Of a stretch of 64,000 bases of DNA, positions 21,054 through 58,805 are shown in pieces. The number at the start of each line of letters is the position of its first letter. The stretch's first letter is position 1. The notes under the pieces are model-generated. The model saw only the letters and a program-made list of their open reading frames with translations. It made no database searches and had not been told where the DNA came from. A program made the translations under genes and the position numbers. The stretch is from contig NC_089433.1 of the NCBI RefSeq assembly GCF_026210795.1, positions 4,278,001 to 4,342,000 of the forward strand, in the 5' to 3' direction. This DNA is from Rhizophagus irregularis. Its lineage: Eukaryota.

Positions 21054-21072
21054 TTACTCCTGTTGAGTCCAT

Positions 21073-31393: not shown

Positions 31394-31866
31394 GTCGTCG
31401 TGCTGGGTGTGGGCACGGTGCAAGCACCACCCACCTCCGGGTCTAACGACCTGTCGCAGTACCTATCTGGTCCCTACGGAACTCAGGAATCCCCATAAAT
31501 CCTCCACAATCCTACACATAGATCCTCCACAAAAATATATAACAAAAAAGGATAAAATAAAAGAAAAGAGAGGAAAATAAGAGGGAATCAGAAGAGTGTG
31601 GAGGATGTGGAGGATGTGGAGGATGTTTTAAAAAAATCAGGAGAGGGATTCCCCCAGAAAAAAGTTTTGATTTTACCCCCCCAGATCCTCCACATCCAGA
31701 ACATCTTCCACACGTACAGGATTCCGTCCGATCATCTGTATAAGCCGATGAGACAGCAAACCAGGTAGATTAACAGGTAAGCCCCTAGAAGGTCTATAGA
31801 GCTGGTAAGACCAACCCCATCCCGCCCCCGTCAGAAAAAATAAGTAATTGAACAATGGGTATACCA
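31394..31866 (+). repeat. Left TIR of copy B (473 bp)
   Basis: GTCGTCGTGCTGGG...GGGTATACCA; reverse complement of 58333-58805 with only a few mismatches. Confidence 0.95.
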
Positions 31867-31897
31867 AGACGATTCAGAATACTTTTAAAAGGCAGTA

Positions 31898-32218
31898 CTA
31901 ATCCGTTTTCCTCTTTTTTGCCTCTTTAAGACATTTATCAATACACTGCTTGCAAGTGTCATCAGCATCTAAAATTTTCTGTCCGAGTTTTTTGCATTGC
32001 CGATTGTAAGCCGTCTGCTGTCTCTTAGCAGCGGTTTCTTTCTTTTTCTCCTTAGTCTTCTTCTTGATCACCCAGTCTACTCCAGTAAAAGTATTCTTAT
32101 GCATACCACAAATTGTGCAGTCACCATGCAGCCGGTAACGCCCATTTGTAGTCATATCTTGTATTTCACTAGCAGTCTCAGTTTCCTTCTTGCACTTTAG
32201 ACAGTAAAATCGTGTCAT
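31898..32218 (-). CDS. Small basic zinc-ribbon protein (DUF5679-like)
   Basis: MTRFYCLKCKK...GDCTICG, Lys-rich tail and a further CxxC; probable ATG at 32218, divergent from the integrase. Confidence 0.75.
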   Translation of the reverse strand: MTRFYCLKCKKETETASEIQDMTTNGRYRLHGDCTICGMHKNTFTGVDWVIKKKTKEKKKETAAKRQQTAYNRQCKKLGQKILDADDTCKQCIDKCLKEAKKRKTD

Positions 32219-32262
32219 CTTGAGATTTGAAGTCTGAAATCTTTCCTTTAATTTGTCATAAT

Positions 32263-33354
32263 ATGTCACAATTAGAGAATTACTACAAGTACTACAGTCT
32301 ATCCAGAGTACCAGCACGAATTTTAAAAGGTGAAGAGCACTACAACCTATACAAAAAGCCCTTAAAGGAAAAGTCAACAGAACGCCCAAAGGTAATTGTA
32401 TGGAAACCAAATGCAACACACCAGGCAGATCTTGCAGAGATGCCAGTTGACCCCAAAGGATTCCACTATTTCTTCGTAGTGGTGGAAGTTGCAGGAAAGA
32501 GAGTCGATGCAGAGCCCTTGAAGGATAAAACTGCAAATAGGGTTCTCAATGGATTTGTCAAAATCTACAGAAGAAATCGTATCAAGCCTCCAACACACCG
32601 ACTGGAAACCGACTCCGGATCAGAATTCACTAATGACCAGGTACGTGATTTTTTCCTGAACAGCCTAGGGGTGATGATTAGGTTTGGAGAGCCGGGAAGA
32701 CATAAACAGCAATCATATGCTGAAAGAGCTATCCAAGCTATCCAAGAACCCCTTCTTAAACGAATGGTAGCACAGGAGTTGAAAACTGGGGTGACATCCG
32801 TGGAATGGTCAGAAGATTTCCATAATATAGTGAGTAAAGTAAATGAACTCTGGCAGAGAAATCCCCCAGACATTCCGACAGGGTCACCCAAAGTGTCAAA
32901 AAAGACAGACCTCCTCTCTGAAGGAACACGTGTCAGAGTCAAGTTAGATGAACCTATTTCTGTACTTGGTAACAAACTTCATGGAAAATTCCGTACAGGA
33001 GACATAAGATGGAACCCAAACATTCGTGTAATCAAAAAAATGATACTCTCACCTGAACAGCCTCCTACATATCTCCTTAATGGACCACATGGTCGATTAG
33101 GTGTATCCAGATGTGCATATACCCGAAAGGAATTGCAAGTAGTTTCTATTAATGAAAAGCCTCCACCTGACTCTGTGATAAGAGGACAACCCAAAAGATT
33201 CATACCTGAGCAGATACTTCGGCATCGCATTAGAAAAGGTCAAGACCAGTATTTGGTTAAGTGGGAGAGATACCCAGATACAGAAGCCACTTGGGAACCT
33301 GCTGACCAGTTGAAGGAAGATGTCCCTGACTTAATTCGCAAATTTTGGGAATAA
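32263..33354 (+). CDS. rve (DDE) integrase with C-terminal chromodomain
   Basis: HQADL, ETDSGSEF, YAERAI; Polinton-like GTRVRV...KFRTG...W segment; chromodomain YLVKWERYPDTEATWEP. Confidence 0.93.
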   Translation: MSQLENYYKYYSLSRVPARILKGEEHYNLYKKPLKEKSTERPKVIVWKPNATHQADLAEMPVDPKGFHYFFVVVEVAGKRVDAEPLKDKTANRVLNGFVKIYRRNRIKPPTHRLETDSGSEFTNDQVRDFFLNSLGVMIRFGEPGRHKQQSYAERAIQAIQEPLLKRMVAQELKTGVTSVEWSEDFHNIVSKVNELWQRNPPDIPTGSPKVSKKTDLLSEGTRVRVKLDEPISVLGNKLHGKFRTGDIRWNPNIRVIKKMILSPEQPPTYLLNGPHGRLGVSRCAYTRKELQVVSINEKPPPDSVIRGQPKRFIPEQILRHRIRKGQDQYLVKWERYPDTEATWEPADQLKEDVPDLIRKFWE

Positions 33355-33379
33355 AAAAAAATAGAAGAATTAAAGGGTC

Positions 33380-34116
33380 TTATTTTTTATCCCCTCGATT
33401 AGCATCAGGAACTATTGGGATAAAAACATTCTTCCCATTACAGGTAAAGGCTATATGTTCACGTGATTCATGGATATCATAATTGTAACGTTTCAGACAC
33501 GTTCGGCTTAACCCAATTTCCCTATGCTTGTAACCACTTAAGACTGCAAGGTCCTCAGTGATAGCATAATCAGGGGTAAGTTTGATTGTCACTCCCTTTA
33601 CCATACCGAATGTCCTACCTGTTCCTGGAGCACCAGATATGTTGTATGTAATACTCTTGTCGATATCCAACCCTAATTCCTCAGCAGCTTCTCTCTGAAT
33701 AAAAGACGCATTAGCACAAGTGTCTGCTAAACACTGAATTGCTATCCCATTAACCTCCCCATCCAGTGCTAAAAGATCTTTAGTATTCTCCAAACGAGCT
33801 ATATCAATATCCATAGGATCGTATTCCCTGATATCCTCTTCTTGTTCCTCCTCAGCTAAGTCATCTGAAATCTCTATGACTTTTCTAGCAGACATCATCT
33901 CCTCCTGAAGAATCTCACGGAGTAATTTCCTAAAGTCTGCAGACCTTAACAGGCTTAATAAGTCATTCTTAGTAACAGCTTTTGCAGGTGTAGACTTACT
34001 ACCAGTAACTTTCACAGGAATCTTAACAGGGGTTGCTTTGCCTTTCAAGGGTACACTAGAAGAGCTAACTGCTGTCTTATTTGGGGACGACTTAAGAAGT
34101 TTTGAGATACTCGAAC
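33380..34116 (-). CDS. Retropepsin-like aspartic protease, probably expressed as a Gag-Pro fusion
   Basis: GEVNGIAIQCLADTCANASFIQREAAEELGL; frame is open up to the A9 run at 34121-34129. Confidence 0.78.
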
Positions 34117-35547
34117 CTACTTTTTTTTTGACCCAACACGAACCATATAGACATCACCAACTTTTTCTCTCAATTCTACCTTTTCACCAAAACTCACAGT
34201 ATCAATGTCCATAGCATCATCGTTAAGATCAAGGTTTCTCATTGCTCGGGCCAAATCCAGATCATCACGTCTATCTTTAGCCTTCTGAAGTTGTTTTGTA
34301 AGTATTTTAGACGTCCCACGTTTATATCCCATAATAAGATCAATAGCATTTTGATGATCATCCAAAGTCCACTCAGGAGCATCAGGATCATCACCAACAT
34401 CATGATCTACATAACCATCATCCCAATCAGGATCCTGAGGATCCTGAATAACACGTCTCTGTGGTTTTGGTCGAACAGGTTTAATCTGCTGTCTATAGAC
34501 TGGTGGATTACGAACTGGCCGAGCCTGTAATTGTTTAAATTGCACCTGAAAATTCTTGGTAAGTTCCTCAGCTTGAGCCTTAAGTAACTCTTGTAATTGT
34601 TCTTGAGTAACCCCAGATGACTTTGATGTCAGTACGACAGGTTCCTGTTTTCCTAACGGAGGTTGAGTTACATCACTGTAATCTGCTTGAAGTCGTCGAT
34701 TTCTATCTTGTAACCCCAAGCGCATTTCAGCCCTTCTCTGTTCTAAATTTCTCAGATGTTTAACCAAGTCATCAGAATTAAGATTGTGAAACCTTTCTGC
34801 TTCAAAAATATTATCAGCCGAAAGACCTCTAAAGAACTGGTCGATAATAAGATCATTAGTTAGTTTTAGTAATTTTCCAGCCCTCTTTACAGTTCTATAA
34901 AATGCATCAACTGGCTCATTTTCCTGATAAAGACTGTTAAAACGGATACGTTTCTTTTCATCTAAAATAGTTGGGAATTGTGTTCTAAGCCAATAAAGCG
35001 CCTGGTTAGGTTTAATACCTGGAAAAACTATAGGCCGATTATCATTAGCAGCAACACCAGCATCTGCAGTAGCCGGAGCAGCTCTATCTGTCGGACGAGC
35101 ACCAGCTCTTCCTCAAGCTTTATCTCCACCTATTAAATCATGAGTAGGAATAAATGCTGCTCTAATAGTTGCTAATGCATTAACTGGATCTGTAGCATAA
35201 GTCTGTGCTTCAGACCCATTTACATAAGTACCTGCATTCGGTCCTCCTGCACCTTCTGGTATTACTAATGCTACAAAAGCAGCTAAATTAGCTCCACCTC
35301 TTGAAGTGATACCAGAAAGTTCCCAATTTTTTCCTGTAATTTCTCGATCAAACCATTCAGCTGCTCCACCGGCCATGCAGCTTCTAAGTATACCCATAGC
35401 TCTTTTCCAAGACTCTGGTGGCCCTCCAGCAGCATATGGGTTAAGATTAATAGTATCAAGATAACCCATATAAAGCCTAACAAATGTATCAATATCATCA
35501 GTAGCTTTACCCTCAAAAATCGGCAATCCTATCGCAGTGGTAGCCAT
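34117..35547 (-). CDS. Ty3/gypsy-type Gag capsid protein (~476 codons, one in-frame TGA at 35113-35115)
   Basis: LPIFEGKATDDIDTFVRLY...ILRSCMAGGAAEWF (CA-NTD) and LYQENEPVDAFYRTV...IIDQFFRGL (MHR/CA-CTD); parallels the gypsy Gag at 51051-51758 in this window. Confidence 0.82.
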
Positions 35548-36326
35548 ATCGTCTCTAGTGGATTGTTTAATATAGGTGGAGGAGGGTTCAATTGTCTAAT
35601 TCGAAACCATTGTACCTGAATTCTAAGAGCAGCTATCTGTTGGAAAAGTTTATTTCTAAGTCTCCCTAATGTCTGAATCCCAAAACGCACCCTATTATTA
35701 GCATGTGCTAGCTGTGCATTAACCTGTCCAAGTTGCGCATTAGCCAATACAAGTTGTCCTCCAGTCCGAGTAGCCCTCAGCCGCCAATGATTTAGAAGGA
35801 TATTACCACGATTCACAGCATTTTGAGCCTCATTACGATCCCTTACTGCTTGAGTATAATCTGCTTGTAATACATTACGTTCATGTCGTGCCTGATTACG
35901 TTCACCTATAGCCCGTCGACGAAACTCTACCATAGTATCATAATCTCTTTGCAGGTTATGGTTTTCTTCTATGAAATTATCATTGGCAGCACGTATAATA
36001 ACTAATTGACGTTCTAAATTAGTAAACGTTTCATCAAATGCATTTATCTTACCTTGTGCAAAAACTAACAAATCTTTTGTAATACCAAGTTCTTCATGTT
36101 TTGCTTTACAGCGATACATTAATATATTAATAATATGTTTGATTTGATTATTTGCCTCCTGTATCTCTGAATCAACAGTTAAACGACCCCTGGTAGTCAA
36201 TAAATTTGCATGAGCCTTTAGTATTCTAACTAATTCATCATCGTCTTTTTCATTGACCAAGTGTGCAGGAGGCGGTCCAGTAGGTTCTGAAGGAGTATAA
36301 ACTGGAATTGGTGTTGATGTCGACAT
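35529..36326 (-). CDS. 265-aa coiled-coil protein overlapping the Gag start
   Basis: Intact ORF with heptad-rich centre and Pro-rich ends; conserved in copy A. Confidence 0.75.
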   Translation of the reverse strand: MSTSTPIPVYTPSEPTGPPPAHLVNEKDDDELVRILKAHANLLTTRGRLTVDSEIQEANNQIKHIINILMYRCKAKHEELGITKDLLVFAQGKINAFDETFTNLERQLVIIRAANDNFIEENHNLQRDYDTMVEFRRRAIGERNQARHERNVLQADYTQAVRDRNEAQNAVNRGNILLNHWRLRATRTGGQLVLANAQLGQVNAQLAHANNRVRFGIQTLGRLRNKLFQQIAALRIQVQWFRIRQLNPPPPILNNPLETIWLPLR

Positions 36327-36357
36327 AGTATTTAAACTAAGTAAGAATAAAATTTAA

Positions 36358-37581
36358 ATGGATCTTTATGTATACAATTTGGACGAGTACACGACTGACT
36401 CAAGACAAGGCAATGAGTTTGCTCCATCATGGCCCTTTCGATTAGCCGTAGCAGGTAGCTCAGACTCAGGTAAGACAACTATGATCATTAACTTGTTAAT
36501 GGGTGACAAGAAGGCAAAGGAGGATGGTAATCGGTATGTACTATGTGATGCAGTACTTTTAGTTGGCAGATATCTTGACGAGCCGAAGTGGGCAGTTGTA
36601 CATGATTTTTTCAAAGAGGAGAAGATCCCATTCACTGCAGTAACCCATAGTGAGATTCCAGAGATTGACTCCTTCGACCCTACTCAAGCTACTGTGGTAA
36701 TCTTCGAGGATCTGATGGATGCACCTAAAAAAATCCAGGATCTCATCACTGGTTACTTTACACATGGACGACACAAAAATATTTCATATATTTATGTAGC
36801 CCAAAGATTCTTTGCCATGCCTAAGGCTATTCGAGAAAATGTTAACTACATCTCACTGCATGGAGGTCATGGGAGCCTTACAGATACTAAGAGAATCATC
36901 CGCCTATATACAGAAGAATCAGAGTCATTAGCACCAGTAATTGATGATCTTACTCTGCAACGTGAATTTGTAGTGTTTGATCTTAGACGGTCTAAAAGTG
37001 ATCCACTGTCCATTCGAGTAAGATGGGATACTAGTCTCAGTTCGATCACAGAGCAATCTCAGTTCAATCCTAGTTCAATCTCAGTTCAATCTCAGTTTGA
37101 TCCAAGTTTGAACCCAGTTCGATCTCAGTCTGAACCCAGTTCAATCACAGTTCGATCCAAGTTTAGTCCCTATGGTCAGAAAGCTGTATCTGAAGCAAAA
37201 AAAGGTGGACACTTGATTGAATTTGCTCGGGTATTTCCATCCCCTAAAGAGCGTCAACATTTACTTGTACCTGGTGTCTTAGCCAAGAATACAGATACCT
37301 GGATTAAATTTGTCTTTCGGGAAGCTTATGGACTTTCTGGTAAGACCCTAGGAGCTGACTTTCAGGACTTCTTAGCAAAAGTACAGGGTAGGACTGCAAA
37401 GACTGAAACTCTGAAAACTGAGAATGTGAAGGAGTTATTCTCCCGATATGAAGCCCTGAAGTCTAGTCGCCCTCTGGATAATAAAAAAATAATAGAAGGT
37501 ATTGAAGATCTTCTACAGATCTTTTCTAAGAGCCACATGGACCGTCGAGCATTACAAGTAGGGATTAATAGTATCTTGTGA
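36358..37581 (+). CDS. A32/FtsK-HerA-like genome-packaging ATPase with C-terminal extension
   Basis: PFRLAVAGSSDSGKTT Walker A, VVIFED Walker B, FTHGRHKNIS.IYVAQ.FF..PKAIRENVNY signature of Polinton/NCLDV packaging ATPases. Confidence 0.92.
   Translation: MDLYVYNLDEYTTDSRQGNEFAPSWPFRLAVAGSSDSGKTTMIINLLMGDKKAKEDGNRYVLCDAVLLVGRYLDEPKWAVVHDFFKEEKIPFTAVTHSEIPEIDSFDPTQATVVIFEDLMDAPKKIQDLITGYFTHGRHKNISYIYVAQRFFAMPKAIRENVNYISLHGGHGSLTDTKRIIRLYTEESESLAPVIDDLTLQREFVVFDLRRSKSDPLSIRVRWDTSLSSITEQSQFNPSSISVQSQFDPSLNPVRSQSEPSSITVRSKFSPYGQKAVSEAKKGGHLIEFARVFPSPKERQHLLVPGVLAKNTDTWIKFVFREAYGLSGKTLGADFQDFLAKVQGRTAKTETLKTENVKELFSRYEALKSSRPLDNKKIIEGIEDLLQIFSKSHMDRRALQVGINSIL
37036..37167 (+). repeat. 12 x 11-bp tandem array inside the ATPase gene (also 10627-10758 in copy A)
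   Basis: Units CTCAGTTCGAT, CACAGAGCAAT, CTCAGTTCAAT, CCTAGTTCAAT ... CCAAGTTTAGT. Confidence 0.85.
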
Positions 37582-38125
37582 GAATATCAAGTAATTCGTC
37601 TGCAGAAGCTCTAAGAATCATAGCACTTTTTTTACGGCCTTCAAAGTCAATCCTTAACATCTTAGCCTTCAACCCTATTGCTCCTAAGGCACGAGAAGCA
37701 AAGTTCTTAGTCATTGAATTACTTATATGATTTACATAGTTCTCATAGAATGTATTGAAAGGCTCGTCGATACCATCTGGATATGTACCCCTTAGAAATT
37801 GATATAAGGCAATTTCTCCACTATCACAACCTATGGCTATAAGCTGTTCGAGAAGCCACTTCCTAATATCTTCATATGGCTCTCCATCCATAATTTTCAT
37901 ATCCAGTCTTTGTGAAAACAATTGTGTAAAGTCCACATTACTTGCCCGACGAATGATCTGAACTAACTTATCCCTAGCAAGTCCCAAGGCTTGTAGAGGG
38001 TCATTCTCATCATTAATCTTCTTTATAATCTGTCTGTATAATACACTGGATAATCCTCTATGTGCTGTTTTTGGAGTGATTACTCCACAGTTTTGGCACT
38101 GGTTTATTACGATTGATGTTGACAT
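37565..38125 (-). CDS. Hypothetical 186-aa protein
   Basis: Intact in both copies; its 3' end overlaps the ATPase convergently. Confidence 0.7.
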   Translation of the reverse strand: MSTSIVINQCQNCGVITPKTAHRGLSSVLYRQIIKKINDENDPLQALGLARDKLVQIIRRASNVDFTQLFSQRLDMKIMDGEPYEDIRKWLLEQLIAIGCDSGEIALYQFLRGTYPDGIDEPFNTFYENYVNHISNSMTKNFASRALGAIGLKAKMLRIDFEGRKKSAMILRASADELLDILTRYY

Positions 38126-38170
38126 GGCTATCTTTCTTTATGTAAAAAAGAATTATTCAAAATTAAGTAA

Positions 38171-38752
38171 CTATTCGGAGCAGTCCTTGCACAACTTGTC
38201 CGTTAAGTCACTTGGGCTTACAGGCATGAGACATTCCTTACACAACTCAATATTAAGCTCTGCAAGTCTCGGGGTATGGTCCTCCAAAGTTCGTGGATGA
38301 CCGGAAGGACCAGAGGAAGGTGTCCCATTAGTCGTATCTTGCTGTAAGATAAAATCATCATATTCATCTTGGTCAGCCTGAATAGCGGCCCTGATTTGTT
38401 GTATATCATTGAAAGTTAACCGCTGCCCATCAAGATTTTCCTCATTATAGCGTGTTTCATTGATGATTTCCTCTATAAGCGCCTCTTTTTCATAATGGAC
38501 AAGGTAGTAATCCTCAACTACCTCATAGTCACTCTCAATCAGTCTATGATATGTTCTAGTACCACGTCAAATATAACGTCCTGTATCTGTATTTAAATAT
38601 ACAGGTTGCTCTTCAGGTGGAGGTGCAGTTTGTCTACGGACAAGCCTTCCATCAATATAATCATGGGATTCCATAACTATTCGATTAAAGGTATCTCCAC
38701 CAACACAGATTGGACGTCCAGTTATAGGATTAGTTATATAAGGGTATGACAT
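38171..38752 (-). pseudogene. NPxTGR-repeat / zinc finger protein, copy B (nonsense at 38567-38569)
   Basis: Homologous to the intact 11762-12343; CGA>TGA. Confidence 0.72.
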
Positions 38753-38809
38753 GTCTTTTTTCTGTACGTGTCTACATACCTAATTGTTATCTTCAATTTA
38801 CAATAACCA

Positions 38810-39020
38810 AGTGACATCGTCATCAGTCGTTATCAAAAAAAATGCAAGAATACCTGATGATGAGGTTACATGGTCATCAGTCCTTATCAAAAATGCAAGG
38901 ATACCTGATGATAAGGTTACATGGTCATCAATCCTTGTCGAAAAAATGCAAGGATACCTGATGATAAGGTTACATGGTCATCAGTCCTTGTCAAGAAATA
39001 TGAGGATACCCGATAAATAA
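38810..39020. repeat. Intergenic ~50-bp tandem repeats (GATACCTGATGATAAGGTTACATGGTCATCAGTCCTT...)
   Basis: About four degenerate units; copy A has one unit fewer and received the LINE here. Confidence 0.8.
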
Positions 39021-39040
39021 GCTACTCCTGTTGAGTCCAT

Positions 39041-39439
39041 TCATTCCACTCCCCAAGGGTCGCCTCCCCATCTTTGTTCACTTAATGCATGCTCTATGGT
39101 TTCCCTTTCCTGGGGGTTCACAACCATCCCATTCCTAAGCATTTTCTCCATAATATAAAGCTGATCCTCGGTGAGGCGGTCTATCCAGTTTTTATAGGAG
39201 TCATTTACATCTTCAAATGTCATCCACTCAATATCCCCCTTTTCAAACCGCTTTCCAAGAGCCTGGATTTCCCAGTACACATCCCCGATCGTAGTAGCGT
39301 AATTTTTCCATCTCTTATATGCTTCTTGACGAACCTCCTGCCACCACACACTATCTACTTTACTCGCTGCAATAAGGTCAGTATCTGGGATCTTTGCAAC
39401 AATGCGTTCGACTATTTCTACTGGTAATCGGTCCAACAT
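39041..39439 (-). CDS. F-box-like protein 1
   Basis: MLDRLPVEIVERIVAKIPDTDLIAASKVDSVW matches the F-box consensus L..LP.E+...I...L...DL.....V...W. Confidence 0.78.
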   Translation of the reverse strand: MLDRLPVEIVERIVAKIPDTDLIAASKVDSVWWQEVRQEAYKRWKNYATTIGDVYWEIQALGKRFEKGDIEWMTFEDVNDSYKNWIDRLTEDQLYIMEKMLRNGMVVNPQERETIEHALSEQRWGGDPWGVE

Positions 39440-39532: not shown

Positions 39533-40003
39533 TTATGCAAGAAGTTCTGCTAAGGTTTTCTCAGCCTCATTCATAGTGACAGCTCGCTTTGGGGGACCTG
39601 TTAATGAGTCCTTAGTTACATTATAATACAACTCGAAGAGGGCCTCAAGTTTGTCTAAAAGAGCTTGTTTATTCTTGTATGATTCACGAATCTTTGCTAT
39701 CTTAGCAGTATATGCTGCATTATCTGGGAAGAGTTTTTTGGCCACGAACTTCACATATGATACAGGAGACTTTGCTGTCTGGATTCTCTTGATATACTTC
39801 ACATGATCCTGGACAAGGTAGCTGGTTTTGCTAAACCCAGATACTAATGTGACTACTATAGTGTCTTTCAATGCACGGATAATCTTGAGGACAGTTTCAT
39901 CAGAGACAATGGTGAACTGATTGCATGATGCATCATAAATAACTTCATCACTAATGCTGTCAGTGCGGTTAATAACGCTTGCTAATTCAGTATATGTTGA
40001 CAT
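39533..40003 (-). CDS. Hypothetical 156-aa protein
   Basis: Intact ORF; homologous region present in copy A. Confidence 0.7.
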   Translation of the reverse strand: MSTYTELASVINRTDSISDEVIYDASCNQFTIVSDETVLKIIRALKDTIVVTLVSGFSKTSYLVQDHVKYIKRIQTAKSPVSYVKFVAKKLFPDNAAYTAKIAKIRESYKNKQALLDKLEALFELYYNVTKDSLTGPPKRAVTMNEAEKTLAELLA

Positions 40004-45484: not shown

Positions 45485-45499
45485 GTTTGCCCCCCACCT
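45485..45499 (-). promoter_or_regulatory. Polypurine tract
   Basis: Minus strand AGGTGGGGGGCAAAC immediately before the 3' LTR. Confidence 0.8.
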
Positions 45500-45514
45500 A
45501 AAATTTGAGTCCCA

Positions 45515-46702: not shown

Positions 46703-46932
46703 GTCTATGTTGTAATTCTAAAAGCTAAAGTGTTGTAAAAGGTTGAAATGTTATAAAAGGTTGAAGTGTTGTAAAAATTAAGGTGTTGTAAAAATTAAGG
46801 TGTTGTAAAAATAAAGCGTCGTGATAACTGTTCCATATATTTTTAATTTTCATCTCTTGATTTATTTTTGATCCTTGGTATTTCTATCCTTCTTATATAT
46901 TTTTCATTCCCTACAATCAATTTAGATCGTAC

Positions 46933-47184
46933 TCATCCTAATCCTTTTTCTATTGGTCTTTCTTCTATTATCATATTGTTTCCATCTTCCATAATTAATT
47001 TCACCTTTTTCTCTTTTAGTCTTATTATAATGTGTACATCTACTAGTATGAAGTCTTCTTCTTCTTCAATCCTTAAATGGATAATTGTTTCGTTCTCTTC
47101 TTCTTTTATGGTCACTTTCCATATCTTATCGACCTTTACTCGATAAGTAAGAAACCAATTCATATAACAATCTCCTAATACCAT
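46933..47184 (-). CDS. Hypothetical 83-aa ORF between the kinase domain and integrase
   Basis: ATG-initiated, same strand and purine-rich codon style as its neighbours; no recognised motif. Confidence 0.4.
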   Translation of the reverse strand: MVLGDCYMNWFLTYRVKVDKIWKVTIKEEENETIIHLRIEEEEDFILVDVHIIIRLKEKKVKLIMEDGNNMIIEERPIEKGLG

Positions 47185-47199
47185 TTTGGAAATATAATT

Positions 47200-49533: not shown

Positions 49534-50135
49534 TTTTCCTCATCCCTCTTTTCTCTATCAGTTTTTACAATCGATAACAACTCTTCTTTTTCCATCTCCT
49601 CATATTCATCTTCACCCCCTGACTCTTCACTAGAATTGCCATCTATATCATCTATATTCTTTGGATCTCCATTAAATTCACCCCTATTCCCTGACTTCTC
49701 AAATTCAACATTTTTCTTTCCTCTAAAATCAATTGGTATTTCATATATTCCATTATCCCATTCTATTGTTAATAGACCTTCTTTCATATTTATTATCCCA
49801 TATCTTAATAAATCAGTTCCTAATATTAAATCTCTTCTTCTCGAGTCGATTACTTCGAACTCCAAAGGTATTTCTAAATTTTCATCAATTTCTATTCTAA
49901 TTTCCACTCTTCCTAATGAAGCTATGTTATTTCCATCTGCTATTGTTAATACGACATTACTTTCCTTCGTTATTGGTATATTTAATTCTTTTCTCAGTTC
50001 ATTCGTTATTACTGAAGGTCCTGCTCCTGTATCAACTAATGCTCTAATCATTTTTCCCTCAATTATTATATTACATCTTGTTGCTTGTGATTTTTCTTCT
50101 TTCTGATTAATATTCTTTAATTCCCCCGAGTGTAG
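49530..50135 (-). CDS. Gypsy aspartic protease, in frame with Gag behind a TGA-CTA stop
   Basis: IRALVDTGAGPSVI...LILGTDLL; open and in frame up to the Gag stop at 50136-50138. Confidence 0.88.
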   Translation of the reverse strand, partial: LHSGELKNINQKEEKSQATRCNIIIEGKMIRALVDTGAGPSVITNELRKELNIPITKESNVVLTIADGNNIASLGRVEIRIEIDENLEIPLEFEVIDSRRRDLILGTDLLRYGIINMKEGLLTIEWDNGIYEIPIDFRGKKNVEFEKSGNRGEFNGDPKNIDDIDGNSSEESGGEDEYEEMEKEELLSIVKTDREKRDEEK

Positions 50136-51050
50136 TCAATATCTCAAACCATTTAATAATTTCTTCCTTACTTCTGGTCTTTCATTCATCATTTGTCCCC
50201 AATTAATTGGTACGCTTGAATTTACAAATTGTTCAAATGGATCAAAATCTCCAACATTTGGTATATTTCGATTTAACTTCACTTTCTCGTTTGTACATTC
50301 TCTAGCAAAATGTCCTTGTTGTCCACAATTGTGACACCTATTATTATTCTTTCTAGTTTCATATCCTTTCTGTAATTGTTCTTTTGTAAAACCCCTCTTA
50401 TTATTCTCCTGTGCTTTTTGCTGTTGTCCTTGCCATTGTGCATTTCTTCTTCTATCTCTTTCATCGTTCATAACCTTGTCTTTATTTCTTTCACTCTTTC
50501 TAGGTGGTACTGGAAACATATCATATCTCTCCTCATCTTCATAGTTATTCACTTCGTATCCATCGAATCCATTATTATAGTTATCATATCCACCACCCTC
50601 ATTATATCCATCATATTCATCATTATATTCCACATTATACACATTATATCCTTCACCATAATATTCTTCATCAAGGTAATTAACTTGATTATTTTGGCTA
50701 TATGACCCTTTATTATTTCCTCCATATGATCTTCTTTGACCTTCCCTACAAACTCTAGAAGTATGTCCTTTTCTTCCACATGTATAGCAAGTCATTCTAT
50801 CCCAGTTCATATTATTTCTTTGGACATTATTATTTCCGATCGGTCTCCTATCATTCCCATTCCTTTGCATTACATATGCTTCATTTCTCTGCATTACATG
50901 TGCTTCCAACCTTTTTATTCCATTAATTAACTCATCCCATTCATCACTTTTAACTTCTTTATTTTGTAATTCTTTCGCAATTGGATTCATTCCTTTATAC
51001 TTATTTGTCTCTTCTTTCAAAATTTCTTCCATGTTTTTCTCTTGTCCTAC
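50136..51050 (-). CDS. Gypsy Gag C-terminal part with two CCHC zinc knuckles
   Basis: CYTCGRKGHTSRVC and CHNCGQQGHFAREC; in frame with the upstream ORF across a TGA at 51051-51053. Confidence 0.88.
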   Translation of the reverse strand, partial: VGQEKNMEEILKEETNKYKGMNPIAKELQNKEVKSDEWDELINGIKRLEAHVMQRNEAYVMQRNGNDRRPIGNNNVQRNNMNWDRMTCYTCGRKGHTSRVCREGQRRSYGGNNKGSYSQNNQVNYLDEEYYGEGYNVYNVEYNDEYDGYNEGGGYDNYNNGFDGYEVNNYEDEERYDMFPVPPRKSERNKDKVMNDERDRRRNAQWQGQQQKAQENNKRGFTKEQLQKGYETRKNNNRCHNCGQQGHFARECTNEKVKLNRNIPNVGDFDPFEQFVNSSVPINWGQMMNERPEVRKKLLNGLRY

Positions 51051-54000
51051 TCATTTCATATCCAACCCTGTTGTTTTCATTAACAATTCATCTTTTGCTT
51101 CCTCTTCTCTTTTTGCTTCGTTAACTGCATCATTCAGATTCGTCGGATTACTTCTCCTAACATGATAACCTAGCATGGCATCTAACCCTTGAATAAAATA
51201 ATTCACTTGGTATAAATCATCTAACGCATGACCTCTAGTTGCAACTCTTAATATTGACCTAAATCTTCTAATATATTCTTCAACACTTTCATTTGTTCCC
51301 TGTTTAATTCTTGTTAATTCTAACATTTTTCTTCTTTGAACATCATTCCTAGTAAATCTGTCGATTAATCCTCTTTTTAAATTCCTGTCCTCATTATGGT
51401 CACACCAATTCACTAAATTAGCTGCTACCCTTTCTTTTTCCTCATTATACCATTGTAATGCAATTCCTCTTAAACAAGTTATAGCTATGTTTGCCTTATT
51501 TTGTCTACATACACCTCCTCCAACATTTCCTTCTGGTCGTCCACTTACTGTAAATGCTATCTCAAATTGTCTAATCCAATCATTAATATCTTCATCCTCT
51601 TTTCCACTAAAAGTTGGCATACCTACTATTCCCCCCATTCCTGCAGTCTGAATCCTATCCGCCAAAGTCTGTCCTGCTCCTAACGCATTATCTAATGCAT
51701 TTGGTGCCAATCCCATAGCATTCTCCATTATTCTTCTTATTTGTGCTTCATTTGCCATATTTACTATATTCTCTTGAAATAATTCTTGTAAATTGTAATC
51801 AGATATTTCACTTTCTGTGTCAGAATTTTTAAAATTTAATGAACTATTCGAATCTGAATTTTGATTCAGACCAAAACCTCCTGTATTTATAACATTTTCG
51901 ATTTCATTTTCAGATTCTTCTTCTTCAAAATCTTCATCACTTCCGTCCCATATTTCATCCGGACTTAATATTTCTCCAATCTTTTCTGAATTATCCGTAT
52001 TGTCTTCTTCTGATTCTTCATTATCACTCTTTTCACCACTTTCTTCACTATCCATTACTCCTGCTTGTTCTTTCAACAACTTATCTAACTTTTTCTTCAA
52101 TTCTTTTTCCGACTCATTCTTATTTTCTTGAAAGATTTCAATGAATTCTTTATCTAAAATTTCTCCATCTGTATATCCCATACTAGTTAATCTTAACAAT
52201 TCTTCTTCAGTTATCATTGTTCCAATATCTTCAAAAATCTTTTGCAATCTTTTTACCCGATCATCAATTTCATCAATATCTTCTTCCTCACAATCTTTGC
52301 ATATAGTTCCTTCTAATCTAAACATATCATTCATCCATCTTATTTCGCATCTTTCGCACCAGGTTGTGTTCTCATTTAACCATTTGTGCACCTCTTTTCT
52401 TAACTCTCTATCTTCTAATTCTATTATCCCCATATACCTTTCTATGAATCCTTCTGTTACTATTATTCGATTATTAACTCCAAAATTTTTTATTCTTTGA
52501 ATTTCCGATACATCTATTTCGTATCCTAATTTTTCTAAGTTGTTTTTTAGTTCTATTAATTCATCTTGTTCATCTTCCCGTATTTCCCGATTACATTCTT
52601 CACATCTGCCGTCTTCTTCCGATATCACATAATCTAATTTCTGTTTATTGCATCTACCACATATTTTTGTACTCAAATCTATCCACTCCTTTATGTCTTC
52701 AGACTTATCAAATTTCCCCTCCTGAAAAATATAATATCTTATAAAATCATATGTCAACAGTACTCCCGTCTCTATCTTTTCTTTTATTCCAAATTTCATT
52801 ATTTCTCTGATGAATTCTTCTTTTGGATTTACCATCAGTTGTCTTAATCCTGTCCTTATTTCACTTAACTTCCACGTTTTATCTTCTACTATTATTTCTA
52901 TTTCTTCTTCAGAATCATACATTTCATTATCTTCTTCTTGCTTTATCTCCACTAACTTGAATTTTTGTGTTCTTTCCATTGTTTCTTTTAAATCTGTTAC
53001 AACCCATTCTATTACACCATCATCTATTCTCAATATGATAGGATTTCTTGTATATATATCTTCGCTATCTTTAAATGTCATACTATCCATTAGTTTTCTT
53101 ACAGTATCTTCTTGCAAATTTTCTCCCTCAGATAACATCTTCTCGAACCATTCTGGTGAATCATTTTCATGATATGTATGTATTTGTTTACCTTCATATT
53201 TGTCATTCCACCAGTACCTAAATCTTTCAAATCTAAGATATAAACTCGTGTTAAAATTCTTTTTCATTTCGTAACTTTCTAAACTATCTTCGCTTTCTGA
53301 ATCTTCTGGTTCTTTTATAAAGCCCCTAGTATCTATAAATATTCTTATTATCTTTTGTACCATATTCCTGTGATATTCGTGAACATTTTCTATGTCTATA
53401 TTCCCATATTCCATATTGGACATTAATTCTTTTACTTTCTCCTCATTCGTAGCTATTCCTTCTTCTTCATAAAGTAATTCCCTGAAGGTCTTTATTGCTC
53501 CCATCTTTACCCGTAATGGTTTAACTTCTTTCGATGTGATCTTGTACCATTGCCAAAATTTTTTAAACCTTCTTTCAACATCCCAATCTTCCAAAATATA
53601 TTTGTGTTCTATTAATTCAGGATTCCCAATTAATCTATCAAATACTTCATTCTCTAAATCTCCTTCAATACAATCTCTTACAATTACTAATATAATTGTT
53701 CGTAATCCTTTTTCTTTCATTTTTGGTTGTATTCTATATCTTATTGATTCTGTTATTCTATCCATTATGTCTCTACATTTTCCCTTGTGTATTGTATCTT
53801 CTCTTTCTGAATTATCCATACTTAATAAATCTATTACTCCCTTGATCGTTACATTATTATATATTATTATTGTATCTTCGAACTTAAATAATGCATCCCA
53901 AAATTTCTTGAATACCATTGGTTCATTTCCTATCGGATGACATAATTCACAATTTAAACATTCATCTAATTCTCCCATTCTTAACTCATGTTCTTCTTTA

Positions 54001-54053
54001 TGTATCCTATATTCACTTTCCCATTGATGGTACCATTCCATCGTATACTCCAA
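51051..54053 (-). CDS. Gypsy Gag: ~765-aa acidic, Cys-motif N-terminal extension plus capsid domain
   Basis: MPTFSGKEDEDINDWIRQF, CLRGIALQWY, KQGTNESVEEYIRRF, FIQGL at the C-terminus; paired CxxC motifs upstream. Confidence 0.88.
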   Translation of the reverse strand: MEYTMEWYHQWESEYRIHKEEHELRMGELDECLNCELCHPIGNEPMVFKKFWDALFKFEDTIIIYNNVTIKGVIDLLSMDNSEREDTIHKGKCRDIMDRITESIRYRIQPKMKEKGLRTIILVIVRDCIEGDLENEVFDRLIGNPELIEHKYILEDWDVERRFKKFWQWYKITSKEVKPLRVKMGAIKTFRELLYEEEGIATNEEKVKELMSNMEYGNIDIENVHEYHRNMVQKIIRIFIDTRGFIKEPEDSESEDSLESYEMKKNFNTSLYLRFERFRYWWNDKYEGKQIHTYHENDSPEWFEKMLSEGENLQEDTVRKLMDSMTFKDSEDIYTRNPIILRIDDGVIEWVVTDLKETMERTQKFKLVEIKQEEDNEMYDSEEEIEIIVEDKTWKLSEIRTGLRQLMVNPKEEFIREIMKFGIKEKIETGVLLTYDFIRYYIFQEGKFDKSEDIKEWIDLSTKICGRCNKQKLDYVISEEDGRCEECNREIREDEQDELIELKNNLEKLGYEIDVSEIQRIKNFGVNNRIIVTEGFIERYMGIIELEDRELRKEVHKWLNENTTWCERCEIRWMNDMFRLEGTICKDCEEEDIDEIDDRVKRLQKIFEDIGTMITEEELLRLTSMGYTDGEILDKEFIEIFQENKNESEKELKKKLDKLLKEQAGVMDSEESGEKSDNEESEEDNTDNSEKIGEILSPDEIWDGSDEDFEEEESENEIENVINTGGFGLNQNSDSNSSLNFKNSDTESEISDYNLQELFQENIVNMANEAQIRRIMENAMGLAPNALDNALGAGQTLADRIQTAGMGGIVGMPTFSGKEDEDINDWIRQFEIAFTVSGRPEGNVGGGVCRQNKANIAITCLRGIALQWYNEEKERVAANLVNWCDHNEDRNLKRGLIDRFTRNDVQRRKMLELTRIKQGTNESVEEYIRRFRSILRVATRGHALDDLYQVNYFIQGLDAMLGYHVRRSNPTNLNDAVNEAKREEEAKDELLMKTTGLDMK

Positions 54054-55768
54054 TTAAATTATTATAAATATTCATCCAGAATTCAAATTGAAATTCCACT
54101 CTCTTATATATCATTTTTATCGCTTCTATTTTGATCTTCTAACCATCCTTTACTATATTGTCCTTTCCTATTACCTATATTGAATGTATAATCTTTCTTT
54201 CATTATGAATATTCATTTAACAACTTATTTTTTTTTCTAAATCTTTTACTTATTCATAATATTCTTATATTAATCTTTCAATCTTTAAATCCTCTTTTTT
54301 TTTTTGATTTTCACAAGTTTCTTCTGCTATTCTTATCTTTCATAATTTCATGTATATATTTTACTGCGCCATTAATTCAAAAATTATTCTAAGTCCACAA
54401 TCTCCTCAGACTGCGGAGGTTTTTATTGCGCATTCTAAAAATTCCAAAAATTTTCTAAGTTTTTACTGCGCCTCAAAATTTTCTTTTATCATCAAAATTT
54501 GTAATTTTCGCATTTCACGAACTTCAAAATTCTCATAACTTCTAAAGTTTGTGAATTTTTAGTTCTTTTTCATTATATATGTAATCTTTACATCTATATA
54601 TTCAATATTACGCAAAATATCTTCTTTGTTTAATCTTGTACTAATTCTTATTATCACCATTATGTCGACACACAACATATTATACTTTATGCGACACACG
54701 CATTTACACTTATGCGACACACGCATTTACACTTATGCGACACACGCATTTATACTTATTTAACGGTGTTTCTTCTTATTTATTATCTTTTACAATTTAA
54801 TAACCTATACTCGGCTTGCCTTTACCTTCACAATGAAGTATAGTAGTTTCGAGGTTTGCTATTCACATTTTATCATTTGACCAGCAAATATTCCTAAATT
54901 TCGCATTATTCCATAACGTTCATCTTCTTTTCGTGAGTTCAATTGCGCATTTCCCTAAATGCTTTCAGTTTTATCTGAAGAAGTTATACTCACGATGGTT
55001 TCTCTTTTTGCCTTGTGAATTCAATTACGCATTTTCAAAATGCTTTCAGTAGGGAGATGTTCCACTCACGTCTGAGTCCAATTATTTCAATTCCCATCTG
55101 AAGAAGTTATATTCACAGCCGGTGTTTTTGTAATAGGTTCCCACGTAACCCTTGTGTTTTAAATAGGTTCCCACGCAACCCTTGTGTTTTGGTAACAGGT
55201 TCCCACGTAACCCTTGAGTTTATAGCTTACTCGTCAACTTTTCGTTACAACATTGTATCCCCAGGAACTTCTGGCATCTGCAAAATACAATGGTGCCCCT
55301 CCCAGAATACCACATCTTACGAGGGCTTCCTTAATTTCTCGGTTTTACAATTATTAGCGTGAAAACTTCAAAGATGACAACTTTTGTGACTTACTACAAT
55401 ACTTTCCGGATTTTCCTGTAATAAATCTATTATTTTGAAACGAGTTCATTATATTCCATCATATCACCGCATCCTTCTTTTTATAATTCCTAAGGTAGGT
55501 GTACAATATCGCTATTTTGCCCGTTCCCATTTTAAAGTTTTTCAGGTACTTACAACCTTTTTCCCAAATATTATATTTTAATTCTAACACCTCTTTTTCT
55601 GAGTTCAGATTCTTCGGAATACCACGTCGGTACCATGATCGGAACGATCCTTCCCTTCGCGAGTGATCAATTCACTTAGTTGTTAACCGTTTCCTTCTTA
55701 ATACCGCATAGGTACTTGACTATAAGAAGATAGTCAAAATGTCAACGCAAAGTCAACATTTCCTTTCT

Positions 55769-55782
55769 CGGAGCATGCACCA
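55769..55782 (-). promoter_or_regulatory. Primer-binding site (possibly tRNA-Gly)
   Basis: Minus strand TGGTGCATGCTCCG begins 3 nt after the 5' LTR; the tRNA identity is an inference from the ...UGCACCA 3' end. Confidence 0.65.
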
Positions 55783-55785
55783 AAT

Positions 55786-57163
55786 TGTCACCCCCGTCTG
55801 CCACCCGGCGGTAAACAAAGTTCCCTGCTTCTGTTATATGTGCTCTCAGCGAAACATTAACATTCTTGCTTGGTTTAGTTTTATTACTACTTAACTTTCA
55901 AATTGCGATAGCTCTCGCCACGATATTTCATCCATTATCTTCTTTCAAAATACGATAGTTCTCTTTACAAAAGTTTATATTTTATTCATTTCATAATTCT
56001 TGTTATGACATTAAATTCACCATGAATTTGTCCAATTAAAATTAATTAAGCGAACATTACAGTAAAGTTTAGGGCGAACCTATTACCTTTAAAATAACAT
56101 TACGCTTTACTAACAATTAATTAAACAAAATTACTTTTTCATCATAGGAAAATAGTAACAAAAACAATCGAAACAATTAATTTTCATATAAAGGGTATTT
56201 TATTTATTCTTCATAAAATTCACAATTTAACTAATTTACTTAAAGTTTTACATCGTATCTGACGACTGTGGAATTCACCTCCCATTCCGCTCCTATTTAA
56301 ACCAACTTTCTTATTCTTTCTTTTCTTACTTCTTATTTCTTTCTAATATTTTATATGTTATCTTTTATGCGCTATCTTATATGCTATTTATATATTATCT
56401 TTTCTAATATGTTATACTATTTTAATACGCTATCTTTTCTTTAAAATAAAATAATCTTTCAAATATTATATCGTAAAGATCCATCTTTTGTGGCTATGCT
56501 ATCTTTTCTTTAAAATAAAATAATCTTTCGAATATTATATCGTAAAGATCCATCTTTTGTGGCTGTGCTATCTTTTCTTTAAAATAAAATAATCTTTCAA
56601 ATATTATATCGTAAAGATCCATCTTTTGTGGCTGTGCTATCTTTTCTTTAAAATAAAATAATCTTTCAAATATTATATCGTAAAGATCCATCTTTTGTGG
56701 CTGTGCTATCTTTTCTTTAAAATAAAATAATCTTTCAAATATTATATCGTAAAGATCCATCTTTTGTGGCTGTGCTATCTTTTCTTCTGCGTCTCGTCAG
56801 CTATTCTTCTACTGCGGCTGCAGTTCATCAATATTTTACATGTTCCTATTTTTTTTGTTCCTTTAATTCGCTATCCTTCCTTTTTATATGATTTATCATT
56901 TGTGGCTTATGATTACTCCTCCTAATTGTTCCTATTGTTGAACTTGATAAACTGGTTGCTAAGCCACATCGATCAACTCCCCACTTGATCTATTGGTTCC
57001 CCGTTAATCATTTAATAAACATTACATCATGTAGATCATTCCTTCTCCTAAAAGTTTATCCTTTCCGGTTAGTTTTATCCAATCATGTGACTTTCTATCG
57101 TTTGATCTTTTATTCCATATTATTCCTCCATATTATGCGATTACTTCAGCATCTATGGCTACA
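55786..57163 (-). repeat. 5' LTR (1378 bp)
   Basis: Direct repeat of 44107-45484 at a constant offset of 11679. Confidence 0.96.
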
Positions 57164-57167
57164 GCGG

Positions 57168-57729
57168 CCAACCACTTTATGATATACTCAGTAAGATTCC
57201 AATCGCCTGAACACCAGATATCCTGAATGTGGGAGAAGATAAATTTAACCGCGAGGTGGGTTGTAGATTCAAAAGTGGATATCGGACGCAGGATATGGAG
57301 GAATCCTGGAAAGATATTGAGATAAAGTTGGCCACCTAGTTTAAAGATACGGGATTTTTGAGGGTCACAGGTAGCTACACATACAGTACTATATTCGATC
57401 ATAAACCATTTGTTGATATTAAATTCAACCTTTTGTGAAGGACCCTGTTCAGATTGTGTGTAAAAGACTTTGGTAATTGGACGGATAAGTTTATTAATAT
57501 TTTTATCAGGGATGTGCTCGAGGTTTTTGATTTCTGATCGCCACATGAAGACTCCATGTGGGTTGGAGCAGGGGATAAAGTAACTGCAAAGATAACCTTT
57601 AACTTGATTGAGATCCCTCATATTCTTTGCAGCGTTAATGAGCCGTTTAAGCTCATCAATACTAAAAGCCTTCTTCTGTTCACCGAACTTGGGGATAATT
57701 TGAGGTTGAGTGCTAGTTTGGGCAGTCAT
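57168..57729 (-). pseudogene. SF3/D5-like helicase, 5' part (copy B)
   Basis: MTAQTSTQ...YIIKWLA matches copy A and resumes as GVAAGRK at 44106. Confidence 0.88.
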
Positions 57730-57947
57730 TTTTTGTTCTATCAAATCGAGTACTAATTTATAGTTACCTAATCTTCAATTGCCGAATATTTTTTCCAAAG
57801 ATCTGCACTCCTACCAGGTTACCCTCCTGTAGTCCTGTGGTCCTGCGATTCTGCGATCCTCTGGTTATATCTGGTTATCTTTTAGGGGTAAAAAAAACTA
57901 TAAACCACGAACCTTTATGACTGCTCTAAATCTTCCCTTCTCCTTTT

Positions 57948-58307
57948 TCAAACTACATATATCTGAAATCCAAATCGCTCAAGAGCTCCTTTTACTATAG
58001 TTAGCTCTTTTCTAGTGTCCGTTAACTCTTTACAAGCCTTTTGATATGCCTCCCATTCAAGTTCACGGAGGATACCCTCCTCCTCCAATGATTGGCCAAG
58101 AGCATCATTTGCTTTTTCCTTCTTTTCTACTGCCCTGTCGTATGCCTCCTCGGCTTTTTTATGCCGCTTCCAGAGTACTCGTTCAGCTTCGGCTCTCCAG
58201 ATTGGGCTGACTTCTAGAAGATGTGGCCCAAAATTGCTATTTGGAATGCGTTCCAGGATATGGCCTACAAGTTCAGGGATTACTGATACTGCGTGCGGGG
58301 TATACAT
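57948..58307 (-). CDS. F-box-like protein 2 with coiled coil
   Basis: VIPELVGHILERIP...LLEVSPIW; starts 26 bp inside the right TIR boundary. Confidence 0.6.
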   Translation of the reverse strand: MYTPHAVSVIPELVGHILERIPNSNFGPHLLEVSPIWRAEAERVLWKRHKKAEEAYDRAVEKKEKANDALGQSLEEEGILRELEWEAYQKACKELTDTRKELTIVKGALERFGFQIYVV

Positions 58308-58332
58308 GTTATCTGTCCTTATAGATTACTTA

Positions 58333-58805
58333 TGGTATACCCATTGTTCAATTACTTATTTTTTCTGACGGGGGTGGGACGGAGTTGGTCTTACTGGCTC
58401 TATAGACCTTCTAGGGGCTTACCTGTTAATCTACCTGGTTTGCTGTCTCATCGGCTTATACAGATGATCGGACGGAATCCTGTACGTGTAGAAGATGTTC
58501 TGGATGTGGAGGATCTGGGGGGGTAAAATCAAAACTTTTTTCTGGGGGAATCCCTCTCCTGATTTTTTTAAAACATCCTCCACATTCTCCACATCCTCCA
58601 CACTCTTCTGATTCCCTCTTATTTTCCTCTCTTTTCTTTTATTTTATCCTTTTTTGTTATATATTTTTGTGGAGGATCTATGTGGAGGATTGTGGAGGAT
58701 TTATGGGGATTCCTGAGTTCCGTAGGGACCAGATAGGTACTGCGACGGGTCGTTAGACCCGGAGGTGGGTGGTGCTTGCACCGTGCCCACACCCAGCACG
58801 ACGAC
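58333..58805 (-). repeat. Right TIR of copy B (473 bp)
   Basis: TGGTATACCC...CCCAGCACGACGAC, inverted copy of 31394-31866. Confidence 0.95.

Follow-up and report, generated by a model that had tools for sequence, protein, structure and literature searches.

Element organisation

What could form the shell of a Polinton-type element in which no jelly-roll capsid gene can be recognised? The question is raised by a 64,000-nt window of the Rhizophagus irregularis genome (NC_089433.1; all positions are given in window coordinates), where an element bounded by terminal inverted repeats (TIRs) occupies positions 31394-58805. Canonical Polintons encode a double-jelly-roll (DJR) major capsid protein, a penton and an adenain-type cysteine protease beside an A32-like ATPase. 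According to an earlier interpretation of this stretch (hereafter, the sequence-only reading), these morphogenetic genes have here been replaced by a retroviral-type capsid and protease. Our analysis makes it reasonably probable that the locus represents a Polinton-type element of Glomeromycotina in which a Gag block has replaced the jelly-roll capsid genes and which packages its own linear DNA in a Gag shell. The element is neither a DJR-capsid polintovirus nor a long terminal repeat (LTR) retrotransposon.

The window contains two copies of the element. Copy 2 (31394-58805) lies between 473-nt TIRs (31394..31866, +, and 58333..58805, -; 98% complementary) and measures 14,354 bp after subtraction of a nested Ty3/gypsy retrotransposon with identical 1.38-kb LTRs (44107..57164, -), which splits the helicase gene and is not part of the Polinton. 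Copy 1 (4981..27520, +) is more decayed, 92-96% identical to copy 2 and carries the same Gag-Pro block; it is interrupted by a LINE-like insert at ~12429-20593, and its right TIR is lost, the match ending at the equivalent of position 58320. Thus, the proposed TIR-bounded element of ~14.35 kb is borne out in length and termini by copy 2, but copy 1 is split and has no right TIR. Flank comparison revealed a target-site duplication, TGACC (left 31389..31393, right 58806-58810; +), which at this single site examined is 5 bp long rather than the 6 bp typical of Polintons. In addition, a contig of one sequencing run (X19) departs from the window at 31394 and resumes exactly as the right flank, representing an empty site with a single TGACC, although this site may be paralogous because the flank itself is repetitive.

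As proposed, copy 2 encodes an integrase, a packaging ATPase, PolB and a superfamily 3 (SF3) helicase. The intact rve integrase with a C-terminal chromodomain (32263..33354, +; Pfam rve E-value = 3e-9, Chromo E-value = 2e-17) retains the D, D and E motifs, and the ratio of nonsynonymous to synonymous substitution rates (omega) between its two window copies is 0.13. The A32/FtsK-type packaging ATPase (36358..37581, +; Pox_A32 E-value = 9e-9) is also intact and is oriented head-to-head with the coiled coil/Gag unit described below. PolB (40117..41973, -; 618 codons) is of the protein-primed type, priming by a protein being presumed, and matches DNA_pol_B_2 with an E-value of 7e-5, below the cut-off of that profile; the homolog from metagenomic locus L003 (see below) matches with an E-value of 2e-6. 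Its motifs A, B and C are near-invariant in 32 homologs, and no exonuclease motifs were recognised. In the N-terminal region of PolB (41370-41640, -) there is a conserved NDC...GHY Cys/His pair resembling that of viral OTU proteases, and by motif this part may be like the vOTU domain that has been described in such polymerases. The D5-like SF3 helicase is present as a 3' part (42038..44106, -; DUF5906 E-value = 3e-15, PHROG DNA primase E-value = 8e-17) and a 5' part (57165..57729, -), which are continuous in copy 1.

Packed between integrase and ATPase are an aspartic protease, a Gag protein and a coiled-coil open reading frame (ORF). The gaps at the two ends of this block are indeed 25 bp (integrase-protease) and 31 bp (coiled coil-ATPase), and the integrase is, as described, on the strand opposite to Gag and protease. 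Both window copies are dead, since each has a premature stop in Gag and a stop in PolB. The premature TGA of Gag (35113-35115) is common to both copies, copy 1 having two further stops, and intact homologs invariably have Trp at this position (15 of 15 alignment rows). PolB is broken by a TGA at 40747-40749 in copy 2 and by a stop and a frame change in copy 1. Identity of the encoded proteins to R. irregularis gene models reaches 96%.

The anatomy of copy 2 leaves no room for a DJR capsid protein, which would exceed ~300 aa: neighbouring features lie no more than 218 nt apart, and among unassigned ORFs none is longer than the coiled coil of 265 aa. The judgement that the remaining ORFs are too short for such a capsid therefore holds. 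Pfam gave no Ulp1/adenain-type protease in any ORF of the element, and no single-jelly-roll penton was recognised by profile scans, which cannot exclude one. The reported absence of reverse transcriptase (RT), RNase H and LTRs was reproduced: the element's own ORFs have no RT or RNase H match in Pfam, and self-comparison of the window shows no long direct repeat around gag-pro.

Gag is predicted to have a two-domain retroviral capsid fold

The Gag ORF (34117..35547, -; 476 codons) comprises a capsid (CA) N-terminal domain (NTD) with an insertion (residues ~70-180), a CA C-terminal domain (CTD; ~192-275), and a coiled coil with a charged tail. The noted resemblance to the Gag of the gypsy element in the same window is reproduced by pairwise BLASTP, in which the N-terminus aligns with an E-value of 2e-6 (27% identity over 64 aa). 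Since neither half of the window Gag matches any Pfam Gag family, its assignment rests on the fold. Among homologs, weak Retrotrans_gag matches were obtained for 4 of 15 (E-values up to 0.1) and 18 of 29 (up to 0.01), homolog P0019 was assigned to Retrotrans_gag with a score of 0.94 by language-model features (Atlas). A sequence profile matched PEG10 CA-CTD with an E-value of 0.004.

We modelled residues 1-286 of the window Gag with AlphaFold2 using an 83-row alignment and reading the premature stop as Trp (predicted local distance difference test, pLDDT, 84.9; predicted template-modelling score, pTM, 0.71). In the VIA fold search against 48,161 solved chains, ranks 1-33 were all CA proteins of retroviruses or retrotransposons or their domesticated derivatives. 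The best matches were PEG10 CTD (Z-score 10.1, root-mean-square deviation (rmsd) 2.4, 84 residues aligned) and HERV-K Gag (Z-score 10.0, rmsd 7.4, 169 residues aligned across both domains, residues 1-282), followed by MLV, EIAV, dArc and copia. The Foldseek ranking agrees and is also headed by PEG10 CA-CTD, and in a further fold search caulimovirid coat proteins were among the weak matches. The model therefore predicts a two-domain retroviral CA fold, in line with the Ty3/Arc-like CA fold expected for this ORF.

The domain of ~110 residues inserted into the CA-NTD (34987..35349, -), which is found in related Gags too, is compact when folded alone (pLDDT 86.6, pTM 0.81). By itself it had no match with a Z-score of at least 2 among 48,161 PDB chains and none in BFVD, which does not show that the fold is new. 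At a guess, this domain may project outwards if a shell is formed. The absence of a zinc knuckle extends beyond the window: 17 full-length stand-alone Gag homologs have their own Met start and a terminal or near-terminal Lys cluster, and none of the 17 carries a CCHC motif. A complex prediction for three CA copies (P0019 residues 1-283, alignment not used) scored 0.00 and counts neither way.

The gag-pro junction and the coiled-coil ORF

The protease (33380..34129, -; a 249-codon open frame) is of the retropepsin type, as anticipated for 33380-34116, with an Asp_protease_2 E-value of 7e-8 and its frame opening at a run of A residues. Its active-site motif is DTCA in the window and DSGS in metagenomic loci L002 and L004. 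The A-run belongs to an A9G slippery site (34120..34129, -) directly ahead of the Gag stop, a feature overlooked in the sequence-only reading. All eight gag-pro junctions have an A9 run just before the Gag stop, from which the protease is open in the -1 frame. Among 84 ORFs of at least 150 aa in the metagenomic loci and the window, a run of at least eight A residues precedes the stop in seven, all of them Gags, and in none of the other 77. In L002, L003 and L004 the -1 frame has a stop immediately upstream of the A-run, and the first Met of the protease frame lies at unrelated positions (codons 20-96). The A9 run, the open -1 frame starting there and the unrelated first-Met positions together predict a -1 ribosomal frameshift. 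Control of stoichiometry by frameshifting is typical of particle-forming Gag-Pro, and the presence of the site at 8/8 junctions suggests that this control has been kept. Separately, a contig of run X17 omits 74 nt within gag (34557-34632, +); the omitted stretch is bounded by GT..AG on the antisense strand, possibly reflecting a spliced antisense transcript.

The coiled-coil ORF (35529..36326, -; 265 aa) ends in a Pro-rich linker and overlaps the start of Gag by 19 nt in another frame. The same frame offset, with a stop just beyond the Gag ATG, is found at 16 of 16 junctions, the ORF of copy 1 ending one codon earlier. Across these junctions the Gag ATG has a purine at -3 and G at +4. Fusion of coiled coil and Gag by frameshifting or splicing was considered and rejected, because a slippery site is lacking and all 16 junctions have in-frame stops ahead of the Gag ATG.

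Conservation of the block across loci

To examine linkage of the block with Polinton genes, we used 15 loci collected in one metagenome scan with Gag as the query. ATPase is head-to-head with coiled coil-Gag in 11 of them, at 40-93% identity, and the other four have <700 nt upstream. In 11 of 11 cases (the window and 10 loci) the start-to-start gap between ATPase and coiled coil is 31-76 nt. The Walker A, GRHxN and Q motifs of the ATPase are kept in 7/7 copies. Three loci (L002, L004 and L007) have protease 3' of Gag, and in L002 and L004 this is followed by the opposite-strand integrase. L003 has the order helicase-PolB-ATPase (with one frameshift)-coiled coil-Gag, its PolB and Gag being open and 46% identical to those of the window. 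L002 and L003 overlap at 99% and have an inverted end in common, outlining a second element of ~12.5 kb with the same plan. This element likewise has DJR-free anatomy, with no unassigned ORF >200 aa except the coiled coil.

In L012, a decayed PolB of the canonical Polinton type (positions 1-901, +; KLMNNSVFGK, YTDTDS) lies upstream of ATPase-coiled coil-Gag and is not recognised by the profile of the window-type PolB (E-value = 0.07). Adjacency to a different class of PolB suggests that ATPase-coiled coil-Gag may move as a unit. Outside Glomerales, a Gag of the knuckle-less group together with a protease is annotated in Entrophospora candida. Scans of IMG/VR with Gag, PolB, ATPase and related Gags, as well as a GTDB scan, returned no loci. 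Four RNA-labelled runs cover 30, 30, 28 and 19 of 30 window bins, their contigs being of guessed or mixed type.

Selection was assessed with the Nei-Gojobori method for the CA region of Gag in 90 informative pairs. Omega is <0.6 in 84 of them, typically 0.2-0.4 (e.g. 0.29 for window-L001 and 0.19 for L005-L009), in agreement with the predicted dN/dS <1; the six exceptions are five close pairs and copy 1 versus decayed L010 (0.63). For the ATPase, omega is 0.03-0.21 in diverged pairs. Gag, protease and ATPase are under purifying selection.

Origin of the Gag block

A profile search of 1.84 billion proteins gave 344 matches at an E-value of 0.001. Among them are longer proteins, here called sister Gags, in which coiled coil, Pro-rich linker and the same insertion-bearing CA form a single reading frame; many continue into a CCHC knuckle and a protease. 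Some are R. irregularis proteins, and examples from Rhizophagus are GBC46968.2 and CAB4418762.1. A quick maximum-likelihood tree with 45 rows places the 25 knuckle-less Gags together on one side of a branch with 93 support in the Shimodaira-Hasegawa-like approximate likelihood-ratio test (SH-aLRT), among 19 sister Gags, nine of which carry a CCHC knuckle. These relationships suggest that the probable source of the Gag block was a retroelement of these fungi with a zinc-knuckle Gag-Pro. A Metaviridae donor is likely, since the sisters look like retrotransposon Gag-Pro. The proposed derivation from Metaviridae thus gains from the nearest relatives being Gag-Pro of the same fungi, but the argument is indirect because the DNA context of these sisters was not found in IMG/VR or GTDB. 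In some sister Gag-Pro proteins (P0273, P0278, P0289, P0291) the knuckle is separated from the protease by an additional helical domain. Their C-termini share a conserved 'IDLKK' motif, possibly the mark of another frameshift, leading into a pol gene.

Does a putative Gag shell package DNA?

Taken together, the gene content can be accommodated in the following scenario. The element would be excised and copied by protein-primed PolB and the D5 helicase, as proposed for Polintons. Translation of Gag would start at its own ATG, and -1 slippage of a minority of ribosomes at A9G would yield Gag-Pro. The protease would then mature Gag, and CA would build a non-enveloped shell. A change of cargo to DNA, pumped in by the retained ATPase, might explain the loss of the RNA-binding knuckle. 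Particles could carry the DNA into nuclei, either within one hypha or after hyphal fusion, and integrase would insert it there with a 5-bp duplication. We favour packaging because the ATPase is kept under strong selection beside a capsid-fold protein that has a protease and a frameshift site and has lost its knuckle. In its broader form, this scenario describes a lineage of fungal dsDNA viruses in which a Polinton replicon and motor (Varidnaviria) are joined to an Ortervirales capsid and protease, reverse transcription is absent, the ATPase fills a retroviral-fold shell bearing an extra inserted domain, and ATPase-Gag-Pro moves between replicases as a virion module; we consider the chances of this full version to be evenly balanced.

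Several observations weigh against this interpretation. The shell and its filling with DNA are predictions from gene content; no shell of retroviral fold is known to have an ATPase portal, and neither a portal nor a vertex protein was recognised in the element. With respect to the fold, no Foldseek match to the Gag model was as good as an E-value of 0.001, Z-scores of ~10 are modest for a helical protein, and the firm match is that of the CTD. No strong RNA structure was found 3' of the slippery site (~-10 to -15 kcal/mol over 93 nt). As to selection, near-identical pairs have high omega (0.66 for the window copies, 2.0 for L006-L012, and 0.82 and 0.76 for others), distant pairs approach saturation and yield values of 0.2-0.6, and the pairs cannot be taken as independent. 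All 15 loci were found with Gag, so that the linkage counts apply to Gag-bearing family members; furthermore, truncation or decay affects L010, L011 and L012, and the second PolB class is known from the L012 contig alone. Finally, the Gag tree is rooted on one long branch, its key fork has support <95, and its labels partly follow search rank.

The absence of an identified portal or vertex protein leads to the alternative that survives best, although we consider it unlikely: Gag forms a shell or lattice that the ATPase does not fill. Such a shell could co-assemble around protein-capped DNA or shelter replication or integration intermediates, the ATPase being otherwise employed. It is established that retroviral-fold shells normally assemble around their genome, and by its sequence the charged tail of Gag could bind nucleic acid without a knuckle. 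However, the ATPase has retained its A32 motifs in every copy compared, is consistently spaced from the Gag unit and stays with Gag beside two classes of PolB.

Somewhat less probable still is that Gag-Pro serves as non-virion cargo, causing dominant-negative interference with gypsy elements or supplying a protease, in an element that is capsid-less or uses the capsid of a helper. Retroelements do strike this element, namely gypsy in copy 2 and a LINE-like element in copy 1, and Gag-derived restriction factors do exist, Ty1 p22 and Drt2 being among the fold matches. Nevertheless, these restriction factors are CTD fragments, whereas the present block has kept a two-domain CA, a protease with its active site and the frameshift site. 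Moreover, the ATPase would be left without a client.

A jelly-roll capsid hidden among the small ORFs, with Gag as an accessory, is very improbable. Polinton capsids do often escape profile searches, according to section 3.4 of PMC8502044, and the ORFs of 106-219 aa were judged by sequence and not by fold. Yet the anatomy of the element leaves too little space, and the 156-aa and 119-aa ORFs have no tblastn match in any of the 15 loci, including the L002/L003 element. Least credible of all is a fossil LTR retrotransposon inserted in a Polinton, as might be imagined from the broken Gag and the omega of 0.66 in the window copies: it is refuted by the intact, syntenic and diverged copies in L002, L003, L004 and L007, with open Gag ORFs at the same position at 40-93% identity, purifying selection and a kept frameshift site. 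Consistent with this, gypsy RT, integrase, protease and Gag queries matched none of the 15 loci at an E-value of 0.001, of which only L002, L004 and L007 extend beyond the protease. Within the range of the analysis, none of the three outcomes that the sequence-only reading had named as contradicting it was encountered.

Relationship to known elements

The element resembles Polintons/Mavericks, including those reported in Rhizophagus (Glomus) intraradices, in its long TIRs, protein-primed PolB (pPolB), rve integrase with chromodomain, A32-type ATPase and target-site duplication. It differs from them in having no DJR capsid and no recognised penton or Ulp1/adenain protease, and in possessing Gag-Pro, a 5-bp duplication and a D5 helicase. 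With Ty3/gypsy elements and the sister Gag-Pro it shares the two-domain CA, retropepsin, poly-Lys/A-run junction, upstream coiled coil with Pro-rich linker and CA insertion; unlike them, it has no RT, RNase H, LTR or knuckle, its coiled coil is a separate ORF, and its integrase follows the Polinton layout on the other strand.

Caulimoviridae provide a conceptual precedent for the packaging of DNA in a Gag-related coat, differing from the element in that they reverse-transcribe and lack a packaging ATPase. Bidnavirids are ssDNA viruses and, unlike the element, have a jelly-roll-type coat; mavirus has an rve integrase. In bidnavirids, a polinton pPolB is combined with an unrelated capsid that replaces DJR, and in mavirus a pPolB with a remnant exonuclease accompanies a separate SF3 helicase (10.1101/2024.03.18.585575). 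Bidnaviridae therefore offer a second conceptual precedent, that of a polinton-type pPolB with a non-DJR capsid. Mavirus is similar in its replication module (pPolB and separate SF3 helicase) but carries genes for a DJR capsid and requires a giant virus; the likeness is not a claim of relationship. Polintons without a major capsid protein tend to lose protease and ATPase as well (Krupovic 2014, PMC4028283); in contrast, the present element has kept its ATPase.

Mavericks are expanded (PMC11952901) and have recently been active (PMC8647823) in Glomerales, and the portions covered of these papers and of PMC11075540 and PMC11296320 do not mention Gag. The suggestion that the architecture is undescribed is nonetheless probably wrong. 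The legend of Fig. 5 in Starrett 2021 (PMC8502044) lists Matrix/Capsid/NC/Pro (retroviral Gag, retropepsin) and S3H for elements with adintovirus-like PolB, and the legend of Fig. 3 names a Rhizophagus PolB. 'Gag' occurs once in the main text, in the Fig. 5 legend, and section 3.4 and the Discussion are silent on it. A 'Rhizophagus glomeromycete fungus MELD virus' exists (taxid 2707321, '6100' in 10.1101/2022.05.25.493380). It is likely that MELD virus 6100, or the element of Fig. 5, belongs to the same family or to a sister with another PolB, and that the layout is the one drawn there. The preprint aligns an Exo I-motif C fragment of 6100, unlike the window PolB with its lack of recognisable exonuclease motifs. 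Apart from the Starrett legend, we found no paper analysing a Gag-bearing Polinton (subscription journals and Repbase were outside the search); two recent surveys of these viruses, one of them 10.1101/2024.03.18.585575, contain no word beginning with 'gag', and a survey of fungal transposon transfer mentions no such element in the text covered. Hence, the gene layout has probably been recorded once as a figure label but not examined. Added here are the fold, family-wide linkage, selection, frameshift site, inserted domain, sister Gags and second PolB class.

If particles form, a capsid would have been exchanged between two virus realms whose definition depends largely on capsids, and the HIV/Ty3 capsid fold would prove able to serve a motor-filled DNA virus. 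Maverick elements expanded in an agriculturally important plant symbiont would then have a virion module. The idea is directly testable, since intact natural copies exist (L002, L003, L004, P0019). Even without particles, the family gives an identity to a capsid gene that in many Rhizophagus gene models is now a 'hypothetical protein', often spliced to its neighbours.

Other genes and neighbouring sequences

The remaining ORFs of copy 2 are small. A Cys-rich ORF of 106 aa (31898..32218, -) matches DUF5679 in Pfam (E-value = 1e-16) and has a positional homolog in L002. The 186-aa ORF (37565..38125, -) is conserved in position, with homologs in L002, L003 and L007. As a lead only, its C-terminus may be a D5-like winged helix: its Atlas score against Pox_D5-like clusters is 0.87, under the 0.9 mark, and it has no significant alignment to the helicase. 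An ORF of ~219 aa (38171..38830, -), broken in copy 2 and open in copy 1, has 2-Cys adaptor and Zn-finger motifs (2C_adapt E-value = 0.001). It is followed by an F-box-like ORF of 133 aa (39041..39439, -; weak Pfam F-box E-value = 0.008). The ORFs of 156 aa (39533..40003, -) and 119 aa (57948..58307, -) have no significant match in profile scans. A shared promoter motif was sought in 40 upstream regions, which yielded just general AT richness.

Copy 2 is inserted in a stretch (31340-31393, 58806-58870) that is short, palindromic and repetitive, with GGTCATGACC units, and may itself be a mobile element. The LINE-like element of copy 1 (12429-20593, -) sits at an array of 51-53-nt repeats and has an ORF1 of 717 aa and an ORF2 that by eye is endonuclease-, RT- and RNase H-like. 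The LTRs of the nested gypsy element are 100% identical, pointing to a very recent insertion, and each contains 69-nt tandem repeats. Its RT-RNase H ORF runs on into a P-loop domain (~47203-47810) ahead of the integrase, with a weak match to thymidylate kinase (Pfam E-value = 0.013), and its Gag ORF is extended N-terminally by ~760 aa of acidic sequence, with stops dividing the gag, knuckle and protease parts. Outside the element, positions 61697-63069 are occupied by an array of ~327-bp palindromic repeats of alternating orientation.

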